A stretch of DNA of 64,000 bases, taken from sequence record MW650886.1; one strand, 5' to 3'. This DNA is from Escherichia phage vB_EcoM-ZQ1. A program made the position numbers and the translations under genes. Below, one piece after another: positions 34,345-59,925 of this stretch; the stretch's first letter is position 1; each line of letters begins with the position of its first letter. The notes beneath the pieces were generated by a model. The model did no database searches, was not told the origin of the DNA, and saw only the letters and a list, made by a program, of their open reading frames with translations.

Positions 34345-34872
34345 TCAGATACCGATAAATTCATCAAAAGATCCAACAACCTTCTTCACCGAGATCTTGT
34401 CATTCTCAATCAGGAAGTTGCTGTCGTTTTTGGCTGCTGTAGCCCAGTCATCGGCAAGTTCGTTGCCTTCGTGCCCCGCATGACCCTTAACCCATTTTAG
34501 TTCAACATCACAAATTGAACAAACGAGATCATAGATTCTGAACAGATCTTTGATGAGTTCAACGTTCTTTTCTGGGAAACCCTGATACTCCCACTTCGTT
34601 CGCCATTCAGTGACACTCTTGATGGCATATTGACTGTCAGACCAAATTGTTGCCTTTGGTATTCTGCGCTCACCCTTTCCTGAGAATGCCCACAGTAGCT
34701 TCAATGCGTTGGTCACACCCAACAACTCGGCGATATTGTTAGTGGACGGGGGAGGTAGATGACCGAAGAACACCTTCCATTGCATACCCGTTATTGGCCT
34801 GATGACAAATGCCCAGCCTGCGGCCTGGTTGGTCTTCGGGTTAGAACCCCCGTCAGAATAAATTTCTATCAT
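34345..34872 (-). CDS. rnhA: ribonuclease HI (bacterial RnhA-type)
   Basis: IEIYSDGGSNP...AGWAFVI and C-terminal WVKGHAGHEGNELADDWA match the RNase HI catalytic core; start re-set to MIEIYSD. Confidence 0.8.
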   Translation of the reverse strand: MIEIYSDGGSNPKTNQAAGWAFVIRPITGMQWKVFFGHLPPPSTNNIAELLGVTNALKLLWAFSGKGERRIPKATIWSDSQYAIKSVTEWRTKWEYQGFPEKNVELIKDLFRIYDLVCSICDVELKWVKGHAGHEGNELADDWATAAKNDSNFLIENDKISVKKVVGSFDEFIGI

Positions 34873-34874
34873 GA

Positions 34875-34882
34875 TATAAATA
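34875..34882 (+). promoter_or_regulatory. T4-type late promoter motif TATAAATA
   Basis: Exact TATAAATA 35 nt upstream of the ATG at 34918. Confidence 0.5.
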
Positions 34883-34917
34883 TCCCAAACTGGTTTTATA
34901 GAAAGAGGAATGAAACT

Positions 34918-35685
34918 ATGGCACCCCGCGCATATCGTTTCAGTCTCACCGCCCCGCAGATTGAGCAATTGCTCCTCTCTATCTATGATGCTATCAAGTC
35001 AGAAGATATCATCTATGATTATGCTGCAGGTGGGACTGCTGGACAAGTCGCAGCAGCGTCTGCTGTCAAGAACATGTGGTTGAAGCTCAACGAGATGGTG
35101 ACAGGCCAAGGTCTCAAAGATGCCATCAACGATGCAGAAGACAGCAACGTGTTCACCGACTATTATAAGTCTTTACTGGATCGCGAAGGCTGGAAATTTA
35201 TTGGATCGCCAGCAGATGAACTTCAGCGAGGCGACATCGATACCTCGAACTTCAAAGGTGGTGAGGTCATTCTACTTCAGAAGAACGCTTCGGGCAACCC
35301 AGAATTCCAATACTGGAAGCGAACCCCTGTTGCTGGGGGTGATCCTACCTTTGCATGGGCTTCGGTCTATGAAGGGAACTCCAATGATTCCAGCATAGAG
35401 ATTCCCGTGGTTGGCACCAGCGTACTCAAGGACATCCCCAAGGCACTCTTCCATATGATCGAGTTCAGAGTACATGTCTACGATGAGACACTGGGTCATT
35501 GGCAAGACACCGACGGGAAGGTAGGGTATCGTGGCGAGGATCTGATCTACAGTGTCTACAACCATATTCAGACCAAACCTCTCGCCACCATTGACTTCAG
35601 CCAAGATACGGACAATATGACGGTTTCTGTGACGTCGTTGGAACCGAATGTCAAGTGCCGTCTGTCCTTCGTTGCGGGTTACTAA
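34918..35685 (+). CDS. hypothetical protein, probable late gene
   Basis: ATG MAPRAYRF with AAGAGGAA SD; TATAAATA 35 nt upstream; the longer listed ORF begins inside the divergent RNase H gene. Confidence 0.5.
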   Translation: MAPRAYRFSLTAPQIEQLLLSIYDAIKSEDIIYDYAAGGTAGQVAAASAVKNMWLKLNEMVTGQGLKDAINDAEDSNVFTDYYKSLLDREGWKFIGSPADELQRGDIDTSNFKGGEVILLQKNASGNPEFQYWKRTPVAGGDPTFAWASVYEGNSNDSSIEIPVVGTSVLKDIPKALFHMIEFRVHVYDETLGHWQDTDGKVGYRGEDLIYSVYNHIQTKPLATIDFSQDTDNMTVSVTSLEPNVKCRLSFVAGY

Positions 35686-37400
35686 ACCTCAAACACGGCA
35701 TCAGTGAACCAAGCGGGGAAGAACTCTGGGTTGCGCATCATCAGTGATTCAAAAGAAGAATCAAGGATGTACGTCGCAGCCCAGTCATTCACGCCCCTGA
35801 CCGAACGCCCACACATCTGAACGATACGCAGTACCGCCATCCTGAAGTACGCCGATGGGTCCACACTGTTGACGTGGGCCACCAGAGGATCACCAAGGTA
35901 ATCGTATGGCACCTTGATCAAGATCTGAAATCGACTATAATCGCCTTTGAAGTCATACCCCTCTTCCATGGCCGGACTGGCGATGACACAAGGCGTCTTC
36001 GTCCTGAACGCGTGTTCCATGATGTCCATCAGAGCCTTACGAGTACGAGGAACGTGAATCATATTCCGGTACTTACTGAACTTTTGTAGAGCCAGGGCGC
36101 GGTCATAACTGACTGTGTGAATGATGCCAGACTGTCCAGGGTGGAACGCGATAATTTCATCCACGTATTCAGCCAGCTTCTTCATCTCGTAGTCACCCAT
36201 GTTCGCTGTCATCTTCATGATGGGCATGTAGTTGACTTTCCGGTTCTCAATCGGGATAGGGTTGCCGATCTGTATCTTGTGGTACTCACCCTCGCGGATA
36301 CCCAGTGACCGGGCGTACGAGTCAATCCCACAAATGGTAGCCGACATGTGAACGTGGTAGTCACCCTTGCGGAACAGGCCGAACTGGGATACATCAGAGG
36401 CGATGACAGGCTTGAACTGAATCATACCCTTGTCCTTCTCCTGTACGATGAAAGTGCTGGCGTTGGTCTGCCCCATGATACCGCAGTAGTCACTGAGGTT
36501 GTGAAGAGTATCAATAATATCAGACAGCTTCATCACCTGGGCTTCAGTCAGGCGCTCGTCCTCTACCAGTTCCTCAAGAGTTTCCAACAGGGCTTCAACC
36601 TTGCCGTGCAGTTCATCAAATATCGCATGCATCTCACCAGACAGGGAATACAGCTTGCCCAATTCATAGTTCTCTGTGCGGATGATGATATCCTTGATGG
36701 TCTCCACGATAGACACTCCCTCGGGGATCGTAAGCAACCCTTCCACAGCCTTTATGTTGTATTCCATGATAGTATGCTCTAGGAGCGTAGAGGGCATTTT
36801 ATGACACTCGTCAAGGATCAGCATATCGGCGCGGTTTTCCGGCTTCATACAGATCGTCGTGCACATCTCCACCATCATGGCGGCGTTGGTGCAGCGCAGG
36901 GAGGAGACGTCGGTCCACTGTCGACGCGCCTGAACATATGGGCAACGATTCTTACTACAGTGGCCATCACGGCATGCCATACGGCACTGAATGGCGTTGT
37001 AGTATAGGTCGGGACTGATGTGGCAACGATAGTTCTTCTTGCCCTTCAGGATGTCTATCGCCACGGCTTTCTCTGCTGCATACTGATCCTGTAAACCTTT
37101 GGTCGGCGTCGTGATAGACGTGCGGAACTGACCATACGGGTTGTGCTCAAGAACCAAATGGCGAAGCACGTTATGGATGGTAGTGCCGATGAGGGATTTA
37201 CCTACACCAGTCGGAGCCTCGATGATCACGTGTTTGAATTTCTTATTCACAAGGGCATCAATGGCTTCAACGATGCATTCCATCTGGCCGGGGTTGGCGG
37301 TGTCATACGGGAAGAACTCAGTGGCAAGAGACTTGATGCGGTCTATGCTGACTGGTCCGACGCCGTCAAGCGCCTTGGTATATTGGTTGAATGCTGTCAC
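35682..37400 (-). CDS. DinG/XPD-like (Rad3 family) DNA helicase with Fe-S cluster cysteines
   Basis: Walker A PTGVGKS, DECH box (LILDECHKM), four-Cys cluster CRMACRDGHCSKNRC; GTG start with strong SD AGGAGGAAG. Confidence 0.7.
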   Translation of the reverse strand: MTAFNQYTKALDGVGPVSIDRIKSLATEFFPYDTANPGQMECIVEAIDALVNKKFKHVIIEAPTGVGKSLIGTTIHNVLRHLVLEHNPYGQFRTSITTPTKGLQDQYAAEKAVAIDILKGKKNYRCHISPDLYYNAIQCRMACRDGHCSKNRCPYVQARRQWTDVSSLRCTNAAMMVEMCTTICMKPENRADMLILDECHKMPSTLLEHTIMEYNIKAVEGLLTIPEGVSIVETIKDIIIRTENYELGKLYSLSGEMHAIFDELHGKVEALLETLEELVEDERLTEAQVMKLSDIIDTLHNLSDYCGIMGQTNASTFIVQEKDKGMIQFKPVIASDVSQFGLFRKGDYHVHMSATICGIDSYARSLGIREGEYHKIQIGNPIPIENRKVNYMPIMKMTANMGDYEMKKLAEYVDEIIAFHPGQSGIIHTVSYDRALALQKFSKYRNMIHVPRTRKALMDIMEHAFRTKTPCVIASPAMEEGYDFKGDYSRFQILIKVPYDYLGDPLVAHVNSVDPSAYFRMAVLRIVQMCGRSVRGVNDWAATYILDSSFESLMMRNPEFFPAWFTDAVFEV

Positions 37401-54978: not shown

Positions 54979-56483
54979 TCGTGATTACCCAGCGCCACCT
55001 TCATGAACTCCACAGGGTGGCGCTCTGCCAGGTAAAACTTGTAACGCTCGTGAGAGTGCCTAAGAGCGTGGTTCGTGCTGGCGTTGTACGATGCATCATC
55101 CACTAAGTCCCATATCCACGCGACGTCCTTAGAGGAGTGCTGACGCATCAGACGACCCAATGTCTGTATGACGCGGATATATGACTTGCTCGGGTGTGCC
55201 AGTACAAGGTGGTGTAGCTTCTTGATCGACACTCCCTGCTGCATTGTCCCGTATGAAGCCAACAACGTGATATCTTCTCCATCCTCCATCGCTTTCTGTA
55301 TGCGGCGGCGGTCTTCGATCTTCACTTCCCCGTTGATGACAAACACGTTGGGCTTGACTGCGCTCAGCATATCGTACACAACCATCATGTGGGCGTCAAT
55401 ACGCTCGAACATGATGGCCACGTTCCCTTTCAGATTCAGTGCCATCTTGGCGATCAGTTCGTTGCGGGACTGGTGTGTGATAAGGTATTCTATTTCCTTG
55501 GAATAATCCCCGTCCAGACCAACAGCATCCGCCGGAGTGTGCTTCAGCTGAATCATCTTCACTTTGATGTCAGTGGCGTATCCGAGATTGATAAGATCGC
55601 GAGCCGTGATGATCTTATGGTACGCCCCGAAGTGAGCCACCACCTGAAGCCCGGCAACTTTGGTATTCGCCAGCGTACCTGTAACCCCCAAGCGCTGGTC
55701 GGCATAGATGCAGTTGTTTAGGATGTAAGACAGTTTCTCAGACTTGGAGGTGTGCACTTCATCCACCACGATATCACCGAACTGGTGGAACCATTCCTTC
55801 GGTTGATCTTGAATGCCTTGCCATGTACTGATGACGATTGGTTTGCTGATCTCCTTTGTCGCGCCCTCAAAAATCAGCTGGGTGTTAACAACGGGCTTCC
55901 AATCACTGCCATGCGCATACTCTTCGAAGTTGTCGTACAGCTGAGTGACTAAGTGGATTGACGGCACCACGATAAGCGTCTTCAGAGGACTTTCGAGAGC
56001 TTCTCTGCGCCGCCTGTAGTACCGCGCCATGACATACAGAATAAAGGACTTACCGGCACTCGTAGCCAGTTCACAGACGCATCTGGTTTGACGCATAGCC
56101 TTGGCGATGGTGTCGTACTGGTAGTCACGAGTCTCGGCATCGATATATTCGTGATTTTCGGTGCGGATCTTTGGATGCAGACTGTCGATGAAGTCACGGA
56201 TTTCTTCATCTGGGATGTCCTGAATGTACTTCAGCGCCGGATCCAGTTCAATGGTGTATCCGTTGTTCTTACAGAACTTAAATACCTCAAACAGCAGACC
56301 GATATCGATTAGACCAGATGACTTGGTAAATAGGCGGACAACCCCGTCCCATTTAGAGAAGGGGTTGGGAACGAAGTTCGGGTCTTCGAATTTGAAGTAG
56401 TCATTAAGTTCTTCCCTGATAGAAAGATCTGCGATGCAACGCATGCGGACTTCGTTAACCTTAACAATCTGAATGTCTGCCAT
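54975..56483 (-). CDS. uvsW: UvsW-like SF2 helicase
   Basis: N-terminal VKVNEVRMRCIADLSIREELNDYFKFEDPNF..WDGVVRLF and ATSAGKS resemble T4 UvsW; length about 502 aa from ATG MADIQ (GGGAGA SD). Confidence 0.8.
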   Translation of the reverse strand: MADIQIVKVNEVRMRCIADLSIREELNDYFKFEDPNFVPNPFSKWDGVVRLFTKSSGLIDIGLLFEVFKFCKNNGYTIELDPALKYIQDIPDEEIRDFIDSLHPKIRTENHEYIDAETRDYQYDTIAKAMRQTRCVCELATSAGKSFILYVMARYYRRRREALESPLKTLIVVPSIHLVTQLYDNFEEYAHGSDWKPVVNTQLIFEGATKEISKPIVISTWQGIQDQPKEWFHQFGDIVVDEVHTSKSEKLSYILNNCIYADQRLGVTGTLANTKVAGLQVVAHFGAYHKIITARDLINLGYATDIKVKMIQLKHTPADAVGLDGDYSKEIEYLITHQSRNELIAKMALNLKGNVAIMFERIDAHMMVVYDMLSAVKPNVFVINGEVKIEDRRRIQKAMEDGEDITLLASYGTMQQGVSIKKLHHLVLAHPSKSYIRVIQTLGRLMRQHSSKDVAWIWDLVDDASYNASTNHALRHSHERYKFYLAERHPVEFMKVALGNHD

Positions 56484-57768: not shown

Positions 57769-58269
57769 TCATGGATTAGAATCAATCGCCTTCCCACCAG
57801 ATAGTGGAACCAGCTGTTGGAACTTGAAGGTCACTGTTGTCACCAGCTGAGGTACAGCCGCGTCTACGTCCACCAGTACGTTGTCCAAAGCAGTCGGGCG
57901 GGCTTCCTCCAGCACGAGAGTGAGGCCAATCGGTCGGTTGAGGTTATCCAGCAATTCAATGGTAATGTCCTTGCTGACAGGCAAATCCTTGCCGACGTTG
58001 CTGGTAATCCATTGGTGGATCTGTAACCATGATTTCCAGTCCTCGTCTATAACGAAAGTAAATACGACGGGATCATAGGTTAAACGCTCTGAAGGTATAG
58101 AAACCAACACGTCACCAGGAGACGGACCATCGATGCCTTCGGAGTACACTCCTGGTATACTGAAGTCGTGGATGTTACGGGTTAGGAGTACAAGGTCTCC
58201 GATAGTCAGACGCCACTTATCGGACGCCGCGAAATTAGGGTTTTCGTTCTTGAATTGTACGTTGGACAT
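57769..58269 (-). CDS. hypothetical protein (possibly tail-tube/baseplate-tube family)
   Basis: Start re-set to MSNVQFKNE with AAAGGTG SD; 166 aa, close to T4 gp19 size; DEDW...HQW pattern weakly resembles it. Confidence 0.3.
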   Translation of the reverse strand: MSNVQFKNENPNFAASDKWRLTIGDLVLLTRNIHDFSIPGVYSEGIDGPSPGDVLVSIPSERLTYDPVVFTFVIDEDWKSWLQIHQWITSNVGKDLPVSKDITIELLDNLNRPIGLTLVLEEARPTALDNVLVDVDAAVPQLVTTVTFKFQQLVPLSGGKAIDSNP

Positions 58270-58468
58270 AATAGCACCTTTGCTGTGGAGATATTTTGTG
58301 ACCCTGATGCGCGGGATCAGTAGATTGTTGTTGGCATGCTCGATGCTCTTGTTTACGAGCTGTCGAATCTTTGTCACGCCAATAATTTCTGTTTCCGAAT
58401 TCTGGAACCCAGAAGTGCGCACTGTACCTGTGACGTTGTCGGCCAGCGTTCCCACTTGTAACAAGGGT

Positions 58469-58948
58469 ATGCTGGACATCATCGTGCAAGAGTTCCAGCC
58501 CTTCCAGAAGCTCGTACCTTTAGGTTGCTTTGATGAGAACATGAGCACCCTCAAGCCATACTGGAAGACCACAATTCCTCTCCTGCGGCATGGCGATGAA
58601 GGGAAGATTCCATACATTTCAGCAAGTATTTATTACTCTCAGAACAACAGCATCATTATCACTTTTAATCCATCATTCTACGCCAAGCTGAAGCAACAAA
58701 TGGTTGGACGATTGGGTGCAACATCGGATATAATCGTGACGTTCAAGATCATGAATGACACAGATAAACCAGTACGAATCGCAACTCAGAGTGTGTTCGT
58801 CAACAATGACGCGGTTGGAAATGGGATGAGCATCTTTGAAGTTAACCCAGGGGGAACGATCTTGATCAGACTGAGTAATGTGGGTGTGAACTCCCTGCTG
58901 TTGGATGGCATCGAACCAGTGGGAGTTCTTCCGGCGCGGGAGCACTGA
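58469..58948 (+). CDS. hypothetical protein (coding strand uncertain)
   Basis: Plus-strand ORF in a gap between minus-strand ORFs; convergent stop with the downstream minus-strand gene; weak SD. Confidence 0.3.
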   Translation: MLDIIVQEFQPFQKLVPLGCFDENMSTLKPYWKTTIPLLRHGDEGKIPYISASIYYSQNNSIIITFNPSFYAKLKQQMVGRLGATSDIIVTFKIMNDTDKPVRIATQSVFVNNDAVGNGMSIFEVNPGGTILIRLSNVGVNSLLLDGIEPVGVLPAREH

Positions 58949-59674
58949 TTACTTCAGCGCGTTCTTCAGATTATCGGAACCGATGCTGTTGATGACACCT
59001 CCGGCGCAGATATCTTTCGCCCACTCTGAGATCACGTTGGCAAAAGAGAAGTTAAGACACTTACCAACCATGTCTTGGATATGGGCTAACTCTGCTGCAA
59101 TACCGTTCGTGATGTCTTGAGCAATAGAGGCTACTGATGCGACAGCAGTGTCGATGGCTTGAGTAACTTCAGCAGCCAGTGCCCGAATAGCATCAAGACC
59201 AGCACTGACACCCTGAGCTACCAACTCAGCCAGCTCATTCATCTTGTTTGTGATAGTTGTGAGAACACTTTGCATGGTGTTGATCCACTGTTTGCCGAGG
59301 TTCTGAATAACCCCAAATGCATTATTGATCAGATCACAGTTGTTCGGTTCTCGACCTATAGACTTCAGGGCGGACTTATAAGACACAGATGTACCGATGC
59401 GGGAATATGCCTCGTTCACTGACTGGTCGCCATAGTTGTTCAAAGTAGTGATGCTGTTGTTGGCTGAGTTGAACATTGCTGTAGATTCGTTGAGTTTGGC
59501 TGTAGTCAACCCACCTGCCGTCAGCGCTTCCTGAATCTGCGCATTTCCGGTGTTAGCCAGTGACGCTGTAGTCGCCTTACCACTGGTGATTAACCCCTGT
59601 GAGGCGCTGCTGAGGGACGGGAGAGGATTGGTAAATGCGTTGCCCTGCGATAGGGCGTCATAGATCTGTGCGTT
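58949..59674 (-). CDS. hypothetical protein (Ala/Asn/Thr-rich)
   Basis: Start taken at MNAQIYD, downstream of an 11-bp-stem hairpin; the listed longer start lies inside that hairpin. Confidence 0.4.
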   Translation of the reverse strand, partial: NAQIYDALSQGNAFTNPLPSLSSASQGLITSGKATTASLANTGNAQIQEALTAGGLTTAKLNESTAMFNSANNSITTLNNYGDQSVNEAYSRIGTSVSYKSALKSIGREPNNCDLINNAFGVIQNLGKQWINTMQSVLTTITNKMNELAELVAQGVSAGLDAIRALAAEVTQAIDTAVASVASIAQDITNGIAAELAHIQDMVGKCLNFSFANVISEWAKDICAGGVINSIGSDNLKNALK

Positions 59675-59676
59675 CA

Positions 59677-59705
59677 TAAGAAAATACCCCCATGGATGAT
59701 GGGGG
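59677..59705 (-). terminator. hairpin with 11-bp stem
   Basis: AAATACCCCCA-TCATCCA-TGGGGGTATTT followed by TCTT. Confidence 0.4.
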
Positions 59706-59715
59706 TATTTAGGGA

Positions 59716-59925
59716 TCATGGTAGTTTGTAAACGAAGTTGGACCAGAACTTACGAACAAACTTCTTGACATAAACCATTCGGTTGGCGTATTCCCCATCC
59801 TTCAGGTCATTGTAGGTCTCGATCCCTACCGCGCCCAAGAAGTACGCCGTGAAGATATAGCAGAACAGATTGATGACGACAAACATGATGTATCTCCGCT
59901 GTGTGTTGAGTTTAATAAATACCAT
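59716..59925 (-). CDS. small membrane protein
   Basis: 69 aa hydrophobic ORF; uncertain. Confidence 0.3.
   Translation of the reverse strand: MVFIKLNTQRRYIMFVVINLFCYIFTAYFLGAVGIETYNDLKDGEYANRMVYVKKFVRKFWSNFVYKLP

Follow-up and report, generated by a model that had tools for sequence, protein, structure and literature searches.

T4-like phages exclude superinfecting phage by means of Spackle (gp61.3) and Imm, which reside in the periplasm or a membrane; Spackle, a small helical protein that is soluble in the periplasm, is made early. T5 Llp and the Cor proteins of the phi80/N15/T1 type are phage lipoproteins of the outer membrane whose role is to block FhuA as a receptor (Braun et al. 1994, cited in PMC9409062). 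Here we analyze a 64,000-nucleotide stretch of Escherichia phage vB_EcoM-ZQ1 (MW650886.1; hereafter the window), an Agtrevirus-like phage of the Ackermannviridae, which encodes a predicted outer-membrane lipoprotein of an already known family, DUF7424 (PHROG 3832). LIMEstone1 ORF128, Ag3 gp146, Det7 gp25, and the 'putative lipoprotein' of Salmonella phages maane, barely, and Mansal resemble this protein in length, lipobox, coding strand, and synteny with gp3, and there is no material difference: they are the same gene.

Like Llp and Cor, the DUF7424 protein is a phage-encoded, predicted outer-membrane lipoprotein that is apparently not part of the virion and is encoded in its own orientation beside tail genes, and its homologs include accessory genes of tail modules and immunity regions. 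In contrast to Llp and Cor, it is ~3 times larger, with a mature part of 195 residues compared with ~60 to 80, has no detected sequence or fold similarity to them, and is conserved across phages of Vibrio, Aeromonas, and Enterobacterales. Conservation over such different hosts argues against a host-specific receptor as its target. The parallel with Spackle is that a predicted exported envelope protein is again encoded by a relative of T4, one whose tail lysozyme hub, of the gp5 type, is encoded in the same window. By analogy with Spackle, the family-wide conservation of DUF7424 would be explained if its target were on the conserved tail tip of the phage itself. However, the DUF7424 protein differs from Spackle: it is predicted to be a lipoprotein, its fold is beta-rich, and its expression is possibly late, and no homology between the two was found.

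The interval consists of two real genes, gp3 on the minus strand and the DUF7424 gene on the plus strand, which diverge over a 28-bp gap (Table 1). Gene order is constant in relatives: UvsW, exonuclease, UvsY, gp3 (-), DUF7424 (+), and DUF7217 (-). The lipoprotein gene and the DUF7217 gene meet stop-to-stop at 58948/58949, so that the convergence on a downstream minus-strand gene that had been proposed from the sequence is seen here. The product of gp3, which bears this name in the annotations of relatives, is placed in the tail-tube-fold terminator family by PHROG 45 homology, and the LIMEstone1 ortholog, ORF127, is present in virions. As the original prediction held, its ATG at 58269 (MSNVQFKNE) has a good Shine-Dalgarno sequence, with AAAGGTGCTATT preceding the ATG. 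For the DUF7217 protein, the match to PF23854 begins at residue 15 of the open reading frame (ORF) and the gene probably starts at Met15 (59677); the LIMEstone1 counterpart, ORF129, is a structural protein of 242 residues. Mass spectrometry of LIMEstone1 virions detected ORF127 and ORF129, while ORF128, the DUF7424 protein, was not listed (PMC3296691). We also considered 'gp215' of Salmonella phage Sajous1, which lies beside a 'tail completion protein gp214', as virion proteomics for this gene (PMC10892097), but dropped it, as gp214-217 in GenBank are another locus with a 795-residue protein and small neighbors. Taken as a whole, the locus is very likely best explained by a divergent pair of gp3 and a plus-strand DUF7424 lipoprotein gene, with accidental ORF extensions and a proposed role for the lipoprotein in the envelope.

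Table 1 Genes and sequence elements of the gp3-DUF7424-DUF7217 interval (positions refer to the window).
Feature	Position	Strand	Basis or remark
Tail completion / sheath stabilizer CDS, T4 gp3-like, 166 aa, ATG 58269	57769..58269	-	PHROG 45, E = 8.7e-33
Weak candidate late-promoter box GTAAATAC for lipoprotein gene	58059..58064	+	Antisense in gp3 codons V69-F70, about 233-239 nt 5' of GTG
5' extension of 271-aa plus-strand ORF, non-coding	58133..58297	+	Antisense to gp3 5' end and 28-bp gap; codon score -0.485
5' extension of 282-aa minus-strand ORF, non-coding	58270..58617	-	Antisense to lipoprotein gene; not conserved, codon-usage score negative
Shine-Dalgarno sequence GGAG, 7 nt 5' of GTG start	58287..58290	+	GGAGA kept before conserved GTG in 8 enterobacterial lineages
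DUF7424 lipoprotein precursor CDS, 216 aa, GTG start, TGA stop 58946-58948	58298..58948	+	Pfam PF24199, PHROG 3832
Predicted signal peptide and lipobox MTLMRGISRLLLACSMLLFTS|C; Cys22 codon TGT 58361-58363, Arg at +2	58298..58363	+	PROSITE PS00013-type rule
Candidate T4-type late promoter GTAATAAATACT, TAAATA 58632..58627	58625..58636	-	In lipoprotein codons S110-I111-Y112-Y113
DUF7217 virion protein CDS, 242 aa, ORF runs on to 59719	58949..59677	-	Pfam PF23854, E = 1.1e-91
Late-promoter box CCCTAAATACCCCC for DUF7217 gene	59706..59711	-	TAAATA 28 nt 5' of 59677

The long overlapping ORFs that made the coding strand appear ambiguous are real. A 282-residue ORF on the minus strand (57769..58617) and a 271-residue ORF on the plus strand (58133..58948), both opening with ATG, overlap by 485 bp (58133-58617), and within 58270-58948, counting minus-strand ORFs that fall there entirely or for the most part, the longest have 90 residues (58673..58945, GTG) and 84 residues (58235..58489, TTG), in line with the limit of 90 residues originally given. 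Upstream of the conserved start, the plus frame stays open for 73 codons in the window, compared with 8 in Ag3, 11 in 0507-KN2-1, and 4 in phiEa2809. The minus frame stays open for 120 codons ahead of the gp3 ATG in the window, compared with 16 in Ag3, 9 in Det7, and 4 in Serratia phage 3M. The double-ORF appearance is therefore due to accidental upstream extensions that are specific to the clade of the window.

The plus-strand frame is a genuine and ordinary phage gene, already annotated in related phages: LHE287, LIMEstone1 (ORF128), Ag3 (gp146), Det7 (gp25), and 0507-KN2-1 (orf120) each have it as a CDS. To assign the strand we combined stop codons with the ranking of pN/pS between frames, and rejected periodicity alone because an antisense frame that shares third positions mimics a low pN/pS. 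The plus frame is open in 15 of 15 related phages from at least nine genera or lineages, with no stops and the lowest pN/pS (0.19-0.39), and its variability is 0.41, 0.28, and 0.81 at the three codon positions. Across the relatives, other frames have 3-22 stops, with 3-15 in minus frames. The codon-usage and GC3 comparison suggested in the original prediction gives the plus frame as the best of the six, with a GC3 of 0.58 against 0.60 for the genome; the codon-usage score of the gene is at the low end for this genome (0.064 vs 0.39 +/- 0.12). The suggested homology search of both products found family matches for the plus frame and none for the minus-strand ORFs of the region, and a tblastn search with the plus-strand protein found 293 phage records with identity down to 25%. 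The finding that had been named as fatal to the plus-strand gene, homologs for a minus frame only, is thus the reverse of what is seen, with homologs existing only for the plus frame.

Two other gene models can be weighed against these data. In one, the minus strand is coding, with gp3 in a 282-residue form that starts at ATG 58617, or with the 90- or 84-residue ORF filling 58270-58948, and the plus ORF is a shadow. The 282-residue ORF is indeed present, its extension raises the PHROG 45 score slightly (from 114.9 to 120.8 bits), and pN/pS is lowish (0.25-0.47) in the minus frame whose third positions fall on those of the plus frame. However, each genome has 5-10 stops in that minus frame, where pN/pS invariably exceeds the plus-frame value, the extension shrinks to the few codons given above for Ag3, Det7, and 3M, the 90- and 84-residue ORFs lack family matches, and all curated annotations begin gp3 at the ATG equivalent to that of MSNVQ. 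The comparative data effectively refute minus-strand coding, which we regard as hardly credible. In the other model, the plus-strand gene is real but begins either at ATG 58133, giving 271 residues and an overlap with the 5' end of gp3, or at ATG 58469, giving 159 residues. Both ATGs are in frame and a TAAATA box lies 68 nt 5' of ATG 58133, but in most relatives the upstream extension has no ATG and is closed by stops, and it scores poorly in codon usage (Table 1). A start at ATG 58469 would remove residues 25-57 of the conserved DUF7424 domain together with the family-wide lipobox, and the AAGGGT before this ATG abuts it, leaving no Shine-Dalgarno spacing. Either of these starts is very improbable.

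We therefore retain the start at GTG 58298. The PHROG 3832 match begins at the Met at residue 59 of the 271-residue ORF, three codons past this GTG. The original proposal of a plus-strand gene lying within a minus-strand array was right, but the 159-residue ORF given for it, which opens at ATG 58469 (MLDIIVQEF), is the 159-codon remainder of a gene of 216 codons. The 57 residues that this shorter model drops contain the signal peptide and lipobox cysteine, so that its product, having no signal peptide, would be cytoplasmic. With the plus-strand gene real and its correct start at 58298, the annotation question is settled. The same ambiguity of strand and start lies behind errors in public records: in Serratia phage 3M only the last 102 codons of the DUF7424 gene are annotated, in Vibrio phage K476 its start is placed inside the signal peptide, and in Erwinia phage phiEa2809 the gene is missing and gp3 is truncated.

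Compared with the curated DUF7424 gathering threshold of 27 bits and a demand for full-length coverage, the product of the gene scores 195.1 bits (PF24199; E = 1.4e-57), with residues 25-215 aligned to positions 2-196 of the 196-position profile, and it matches PHROG 3832 with E = 1.4e-94. Its N terminus was compared with the lipoprotein rule of PROSITE PS00013 / PS51257, which calls for a positively charged n-region, a hydrophobic h-region, and {DERK}(6)-[LIVMFWSTAG](2)-[LIVMFYSTAGCQ]-[AGS]-C with the cysteine at 15-35. The protein has MTLMRGISRLLLACSMLLFTS|C with the cysteine at position 22 and positively charged residues R5 and R9, and its strongest hydrophobic window covers residues 10-30. 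A PS00013-type lipobox occurs in 34 of 39 family members, 29 of which have Arg or Lys at +2, and C22, C54, and C77 are each at least 90% conserved in the family. The AF2 model (pLDDT 87, pTM 0.81) has a beta-rich mature domain of ~195 residues; this mature part has no transmembrane segment (maximum Kyte-Doolittle mean over 19 residues of 1.2) and ends in ...GIEPVGVLPAREH. By established rules, it is highly probable that the protein is exported and carries a lipid at Cys22, that Lol delivers it to the outer membrane, in whose inner leaflet it sits, and that it is absent from virions; the predicted outer-membrane sorting is based on the absence of Asp at +2, where the residue is Arg23.

Family-level matches of the lipoprotein are limited to DUF7424 and PHROG 3832/37762. 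Sequence searches of PDB, NCBIfam, and PADLOC with the lipoprotein gave zero matches, the names of the proteins retrieved by profile from a set of 5.8 billion were uninformative, and in fold searches the only matches were to DUF7424 members or to generic beta-sandwiches, none of known function. Literature searches found no paper that mentions DUF7424, neither experiments nor transcript data on the gene, and no Ackermannviridae transcriptome.

We tentatively propose that the lipoprotein is an accessory protective factor that acts in the cell envelope. It would bind a conserved envelope component or an incoming tail tip, and in this way would exclude superinfecting phage or spare progeny from loss on infected cells and debris, as a functional analog of T5 Llp, phi80/N15 Cor, and T4 Spackle without homology to them. 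Envelope-level superinfection exclusion is suggested by distant homologs in accessory ('moron') positions, with bona fide DUF7424 homologs (E = 1e-30 to 1e-38) found at accessory sites in other mobile elements. One homolog (L021) is directly 3' of a CI-like repressor gene, co-oriented with it and divergent from Cro, in a place that corresponds to the slot occupied by rexAB in lambda. Another (L012) comes after an S24 peptidase fragment, a third (L020) lies between the tape measure and Dit genes of a prophage tail module, and further homologs are on elements with resolvases and toxin-antitoxin genes. Against exclusion, the homologs in these contexts are only 20-25% identical and possibly differ in function, and the family-wide conservation, with 55-60% identity between genera, is more like that of a core function than of an accessory gene. 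In addition, the DUF7424 gene, if really expressed late, would depart from the usual timing of exclusion genes in lytic phages, of which imm and sp of T4 are early. PADLOC, NCBIfam, PDB, and fold searches revealed no sequence or structural likeness to Llp, Cor, or Spackle.

Other functions in the envelope were weighed with the same evidence. A lysis protein, acting as an unconventional outer-membrane disruptor in place of the as yet undetected spanins of Vi01-like phages, would fit a predicted outer-membrane lipoprotein conserved throughout a phage family in which experts found no spanins, and some lineages have late-type TAAATA boxes ahead of the gene. As in the Rz1-type o-spanin of lambda and the T1 gp11-type u-spanin, an N-terminal lipoprotein signal is combined with predicted outer-membrane sorting. 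However, the mature 195 residues are globular and beta-rich with 7.2% Pro, in contrast to the short, Pro-rich, largely unstructured domain of an Rz1-like o-spanin, and despite the lipobox there is no C-terminal transmembrane segment as in a T1 gp11-like u-spanin. No i-spanin-like gene is adjacent or overlapping, the neighbors in all lineages being gp3 and the DUF7217 virion protein, and the annotated peptidoglycan-binding (endolysin-type) gene is tens of kb away, which places the lipoprotein gene outside a lysis cassette. Further, DUF7424 homologs are co-oriented with CI repressors, unlike Rz1-type o-spanins, and a lysis gene behind a CI repressor would kill the lysogen. Rz-like and i-spanin genes are also annotated elsewhere in Vi01-like genomes (PMC10892097). 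Taken together, these observations make a lysis protein quite improbable. Another periplasmic or envelope role, such as inhibiting an enzyme of the host envelope or setting the time of lysis, is possible but on the doubtful side: neither fold nor sequence matches indicate a particular function, the strong family-wide conservation suggests a conserved partner, and nothing specific speaks against such a role, but the accessory contexts of the homologs fit protective cargo better than host takeover. Whichever role applies, this is a family-wide, well-folded lipoprotein of phages that serve in biocontrol of Salmonella, E. coli O157, Klebsiella, and Dickeya, and exclusion or envelope remodeling by it, if true, would matter for the design of phage cocktails.

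A T4-type late promoter was taken as a gp55/gp33-dependent, TATAAATA-like box whose TAAATA core keeps its position ahead of a late gene, in a phage with genes for gp55 and gp33; homologs of gp55 and gp33 are annotated in the syntenic region of LHE287. The DUF7424 gene is probably expressed late; canonical TAAATA boxes precede it in Vibrio phage K476 and a metagenomic relative (contig L015), where they are intergenic, 38 and 57 nt before the ATG, respectively. In the phage studied here there is no canonical promoter near the lipoprotein start, the box at 58059 being the nearest plus-strand TAAATA, and a scan for sigma-70 promoters found none upstream of 58298. The 58059 box has counterparts at -233 to -249 in nine enterobacterial lineages, and the gp3 codons V69 and F70 are two of just four invariant codons in 64 columns, with an adjacency that alone has P ~ 0.09. 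On the opposite strand, the TAAATA at 58627-58632 is 357 nt from the gp3 ATG and may serve gp3. Among 41 columns with invariant residues in seven lineages, the only invariant codons are the four consecutive ones at 58625-58636 (P ~ 1.5e-5 for random placement); in Serratia phage 3M this site is lost and the same 10-mer, AATAAATACT, occurs elsewhere in its CDS. A more far-reaching proposal, which we consider unlikely, is that DUF7424 is a new class of outer-membrane lipoprotein that, as a functional analog of Llp, Cor, or Spackle, protects the carrier cell or progeny at the envelope in lytic Ackermannviridae, temperate phages, and other mobile elements, and that its gene forms a head-to-head unit with gp3 in which the late promoter of each gene is inside the CDS of the other (58059, plus strand; 58632, minus strand). 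In such a unit, the mRNAs of the two genes would be complementary over ~570 nt at their 5' ends, with possible mutual regulation.

At the convergent junction, a scan for intrinsic terminators found none, and the small hairpin that spans both stop codons, a stem-loop in the Ag3 annotation, shows no better folding than shuffled sequence does. Of the 24 TAAATA boxes in the window, 11 lie 24-38 nt before long ORFs, and LIMEstone1 has a putative late promoter annotated at the site equivalent to the box upstream of the DUF7217 gene.

Two long overlapping open reading frames (ORFs), one on each strand, had been described at 58133-58948, with the suggestion that a real plus-strand gene is embedded here in a minus-strand array. 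Both ORFs were recovered at their reported lengths, with 485 bp in common, and sequence comparison assigns the region to the plus strand. Among 15 genomes (the window, Escherichia phage LHE287, LIMEstone1, Ag3, Det7, Klebsiella phage 0507-KN2-1 [KN2-1], Serratia phage 3M, Erwinia phage phiEa2809, Vibrio phage K476, Aeromonas phage TSW001, and five metagenomic relatives), a single plus-strand frame is open over 205–242 codons in every one, and the longest minus-strand stop-free stretches vary in frame, position, and length. When six enterobacterial lineages are aligned by codon, this plus frame contains no stops and has the lowest pN/pS in each pair (0.19–0.39). The antisense frame with which it has third positions in common gives 0.25–0.47, always above the plus frame, with 5–10 stops per genome; its low ratio is the expected mimicry of constraint through those common positions. 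The remaining frames are at ~1 or above (0.81–2.2) and carry 3–22 stops. Variable columns per plus-frame codon position 1, 2, and 3 amount to 0.41, 0.28, and 0.81, the codon-usage score of the plus frame is the best of the six (+0.064, with the others at −0.17 to −0.91), and its GC3 (0.58) agrees with that of the genome (0.60). A tblastn search with the plus-frame product reached 293 phage records at identities down to 25%, and family profile searches, including Pfam and PHROG, gave no matches for minus-strand ORFs of 90 and 84 aa. The predicted strand is upheld, and it was also correct that 58270-58948 lacks a minus-strand ORF longer than 90 aa and that the ATG at 58269 (MSNVQFKNE), the start of the T4 gp3-like tail-completion gene (gp3), has a good Shine-Dalgarno sequence (AAAGGTGCTATT-ATG).

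By comparison with relatives, the extensions that create the overlap are accidents, because they shrink elsewhere: that of the plus ORF over gp3 from 73 codons in the window to 8 in Ag3, 11 in KN2-1, and 4 in phiEa2809, and that of the gp3 ORF over the plus gene from 120 codons to 16 in Ag3, 9 in Det7, and 4 in 3M. Both extensions score negatively for codon usage. The real genes do not overlap, and the 28-bp gap between them holds the Shine-Dalgarno sequences of both. The plus gene converges on a minus-strand gene, as proposed, with the DUF7217 virion-protein gene abutting it stop-to-stop at 58949. The original prediction was right in strand and wrong in start: its 159-aa model from ATG 58469 drops the signal peptide and 33 conserved-domain residues. 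The alignment places the start at GTG 58298. All enterobacterial lineages keep an aligned GTG and an upstream GGAGA; Det7 is among them, although it lacks an ATG where the nearby Met lies. In the homologues from Vibrio and Aeromonas phages, the corresponding start codon is ATG. A plus-strand CDS of 216–217 aa is present in the curated records of LHE287, LIMEstone1 (ORF128, with the remark 'putative signal peptide present'), Ag3 (gp146), Det7 (gp25), and KN2-1 (orf120). The feature is an already annotated, Pfam-classified gene. Elsewhere, public annotation is inconsistent (Table): the 3M record has only the last 102 codons, the phiEa2809 record lacks the gene and shortens gp3 to 105 aa, and the K476 record begins it within the signal peptide and places a spurious 30-aa minus-strand ORF over it.

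Coordinates of the features
Feature	Sequence	Position (strand)	Detail
gp3 gene	window	57769..58269 (-)	
gp3 long ORF	window	57769..58617 (-)	282 aa
Plus-strand long ORF	window	58133..58948 (+)	271 aa
GGAG before GTG	window	58287-58290	
DUF7424 lipoprotein gene	window	58298..58948 (+)	216 aa
Nearest plus-strand box	window	58059-58064 (+)	GTAAATAC; 233 nt before GTG; within gp3 codons V69-F70
S110-I111-Y112-Y113 codons	window	58625-58636 (+)	AGT ATT TAT TAC
Embedded box	window	58632..58627 (-)	GTAATAAATACT; 357 nt upstream of gp3 ATG
DUF7217 ORF	window	58949-59719 (-)	256 aa
Late box in DUF7217 ORF	window	59711..59706 (-)	CCCTAAATACCCCC
Small-protein gene	window	59716-59886 (-)	56 aa
Plus ORF in minus-strand array	window	34759-35685 (+)	308 aa
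Box before ~34918	window	34875-34882 (+)	TATAAATA
DNA helicase gene	window	35682..37400 (-)	
Boxes 24–38 nt before long ORFs	window	6253+, 12366+, 34877+, 6277-, 10036-, 20674-, 23826-, 24210-, 52086-, 56514-, 59711-	
Boxes antisense within UvsW gene	window	56279-56284 (+), 56327-56332 (+)	one a good CTTAAATACCTC
Region with DUF7424 homologue behind CI-type repressor	L021	3045-4669	
Region with DUF7424 homologue after S24 peptidase fragment	L012	3688-4681	
Region with DUF7424 homologue in prophage tail module	L020	1842-5483	between tape measure and Dit genes
YadA_anchor gene	L017	4021-4869 (+)	282 aa
Inconsistent public annotation	L006	1477-2142	
Inconsistent public annotation	L007	1492-2163, 972-1457	
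Inconsistent public annotation	L008	1989-2579	

The 216-aa product matches Pfam DUF7424 (PF24199; E = 1.4e-57, residues 25-215) and PHROG 3832 (E = 1.4e-94). Its N-terminus, MTLMRGISRLLLACSMLLFTS followed by C-R, is a lipobox by the PROSITE rule, as are those of 34 of the 39 aligned family members. At position +2, 29 of those 34 have R or K, which predicts outer-membrane sorting under the Lol rule of E. coli. Conservation of Cys54 and Cys77 is likewise at least 90%, suggesting a periplasmic disulfide. The mature part (195 aa, 21.6 kDa, 7% Pro) has no transmembrane segment. The 39-sequence alignment yielded a confident AlphaFold model (pLDDT 87, pTM 0.81), which is mostly beta. A Foldseek search of the PDB with this model returned nothing at E ≤ 0.001, with listed matches at TM ~0.2, and a BFVD fold search found only DUF7424 proteins, from Serratia, Enterobacter, Aeromonas, and Vibrio phages. 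Searches of PDB sequences, NCBIfam, and PADLOC likewise yielded no significant matches. The family is small, with just 30 representative clusters in 1.84 billion proteins. Taken together, these comparisons establish a real gene that encodes a predicted lipoprotein-type precursor conserved across the family.

Across the 2.3 kb around the ORF pair, the window is 99.1% identical to LHE287 and 84–89% identical to Shigella phage Ag3, Salmonella phage SKML-39, and Dickeya phage LIMEstone1, identities that mark it as an Agtrevirus-like Ackermannviridae genome. The order UvsW, exonuclease, UvsY, gp3 (all minus), DUF7424 (plus), DUF7217 (minus) is conserved in genomes ranging from Agtrevirus out to metagenomic relatives with 37% identity, and phages of Vibrio and Aeromonas also keep the divergent gp3/DUF7424 pair. 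The virion proteome of LIMEstone1 includes ORF127 (gp3) and ORF129 (DUF7217), and its list of 39 virion proteins lacks ORF128 (PMC3296691); from this one proteome, the lipoprotein appears to be non-structural. In an Ackermannviridae-like metagenomic contig (L017), a gene with a YadA_anchor domain (the membrane anchor of trimeric autotransporters) lies just past the DUF7217 gene; as an outer-membrane protein, its product is unusual in a lytic phage.

What remains of interest is the function of DUF7424 and a promoter-like element embedded in its gene. Bona fide homologues outside Ackermannviridae (Pfam E = 1e-30 to 1e-38) occupy typical accessory-gene positions (Table). In one comparison locus, L021, the homologue follows directly on a CI-type repressor (HTH_3, Peptidase_S24, and Phage_CI_repr domains), points in the same direction as it, and is divergent from a P22-type Cro. 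In lambda, the slot behind the CI repressor is held by rexAB, and the homologue thus sits in the equivalent of the rexAB slot. Further homologues occur in elements carrying resolvases and RelB/YafQ genes, and a single one is chromosomal. Such positions are typical of exclusion or lysogenic-conversion genes, and the contexts fit protective cargo. We tentatively propose that the outer-membrane-anchored periplasmic protein could provide envelope-level exclusion or protect progeny, a possibility that falls somewhat short of an even chance. Conservation across hosts suggests a conserved partner, which would be a component of the envelope or the tail tip of the phage itself. The main competing explanation, that the lipoprotein is a non-canonical outer-membrane disruptor, draws on two genome announcements for Vi01-like phages in which neither a holin nor a spanin was found, but it is improbable: by the features that define the two classes, the protein qualifies neither as an o-spanin nor as a u-spanin, spanin-like genes are annotated elsewhere in Vi01-like genomes (PMC10892097), and no gene that is expressed together with a repressor can serve in lysis.

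The annotation of the syntenic LHE287 region includes homologues of gp55, the late sigma factor of T4, and of its co-activator gp33. The window has 24 TAAATA boxes, close to the base-composition expectation, so that position rather than abundance is informative; 11 of them precede the start of a long ORF on their own strand by 24–38 nt, with gp54-like, gp5-like, gp2-like, UvsW, and DUF7217 genes among those behind them. Judged from these positions and the gp55/gp33 homologues, TAAATA(C) is probably a working late-promoter signature in this phage, with short leaders as the norm, and the 11 positions provide a usable map of candidate late promoters. Upstream of the lipoprotein gene we found neither a sigma-70-like promoter nor a nearby TAAATA box. 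In nine enterobacterial lineages the nearest one on the plus strand is found again, at −233 to −249, and V69 and F70 are two of just 4 of 64 codons with frozen synonymous sites, a clustering that alone is not significant (P ~0.09). Canonical boxes (CTCCTAAATACC and CTCCTTAAATAC) are intergenic in K476 and in the metagenomic contig L015, at 38 and 57 nt before the ATG. Because of these upstream boxes, the lipoprotein gene is probably late. No intrinsic terminator was found between the convergent lipoprotein and DUF7217 genes.

Within the lipoprotein gene, a synonymous-site test over seven lineages covered 41 non-start columns with an invariant, degenerate amino acid. The codon is invariant in just four, the consecutive S110-Y113 (P ~1.5e-5 for a run of four under random placement), which read on the minus strand as a T4-type late box. 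In 3M the residues are SLYY and the box is lost, with an identical 10-mer (AATAAATACT) elsewhere in its CDS; minus-strand boxes occur at one place or another of the gene in other divergent lineages as well. The simplest reading is that the 58632 box may be a late promoter of gp3, embedded antisense in the lipoprotein gene, and we keep this as a hypothesis because the leader would be atypically long. If the 58059 (+) and 58632 (-) boxes both act, head-to-head transcripts would overlap by ~570 nt. The two plus-strand boxes within UvsW have no plus-strand ORF within 120 nt after them, and may be chance occurrences; alternatively, they may give rise to antisense RNA across the exonuclease, UvsY, and gp3 genes.

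Met15 (59677) is the probable start of the DUF7217 gene, giving 242 aa: residue 15 of the longer ORF is where the family profiles begin, the late box lies within that ORF, and LIMEstone1 ORF129 has 242 aa; the LHE287 record gives the longer form. Immediately upstream, the 56-aa small protein has a single N-terminal hydrophobic segment (MFVVINLFCYIFTAYFLGAVG...), and relatives keep a hypothetical protein of 55–60 aa. No holin has been identified to date in the phage family of the window. Another plus gene within the minus-strand array ends just before the DNA helicase gene; the actual gene is probably 255 aa with a start at ~34918, 35 nt after a late-type box, and LHE287 annotates a matching 255-aa CDS.
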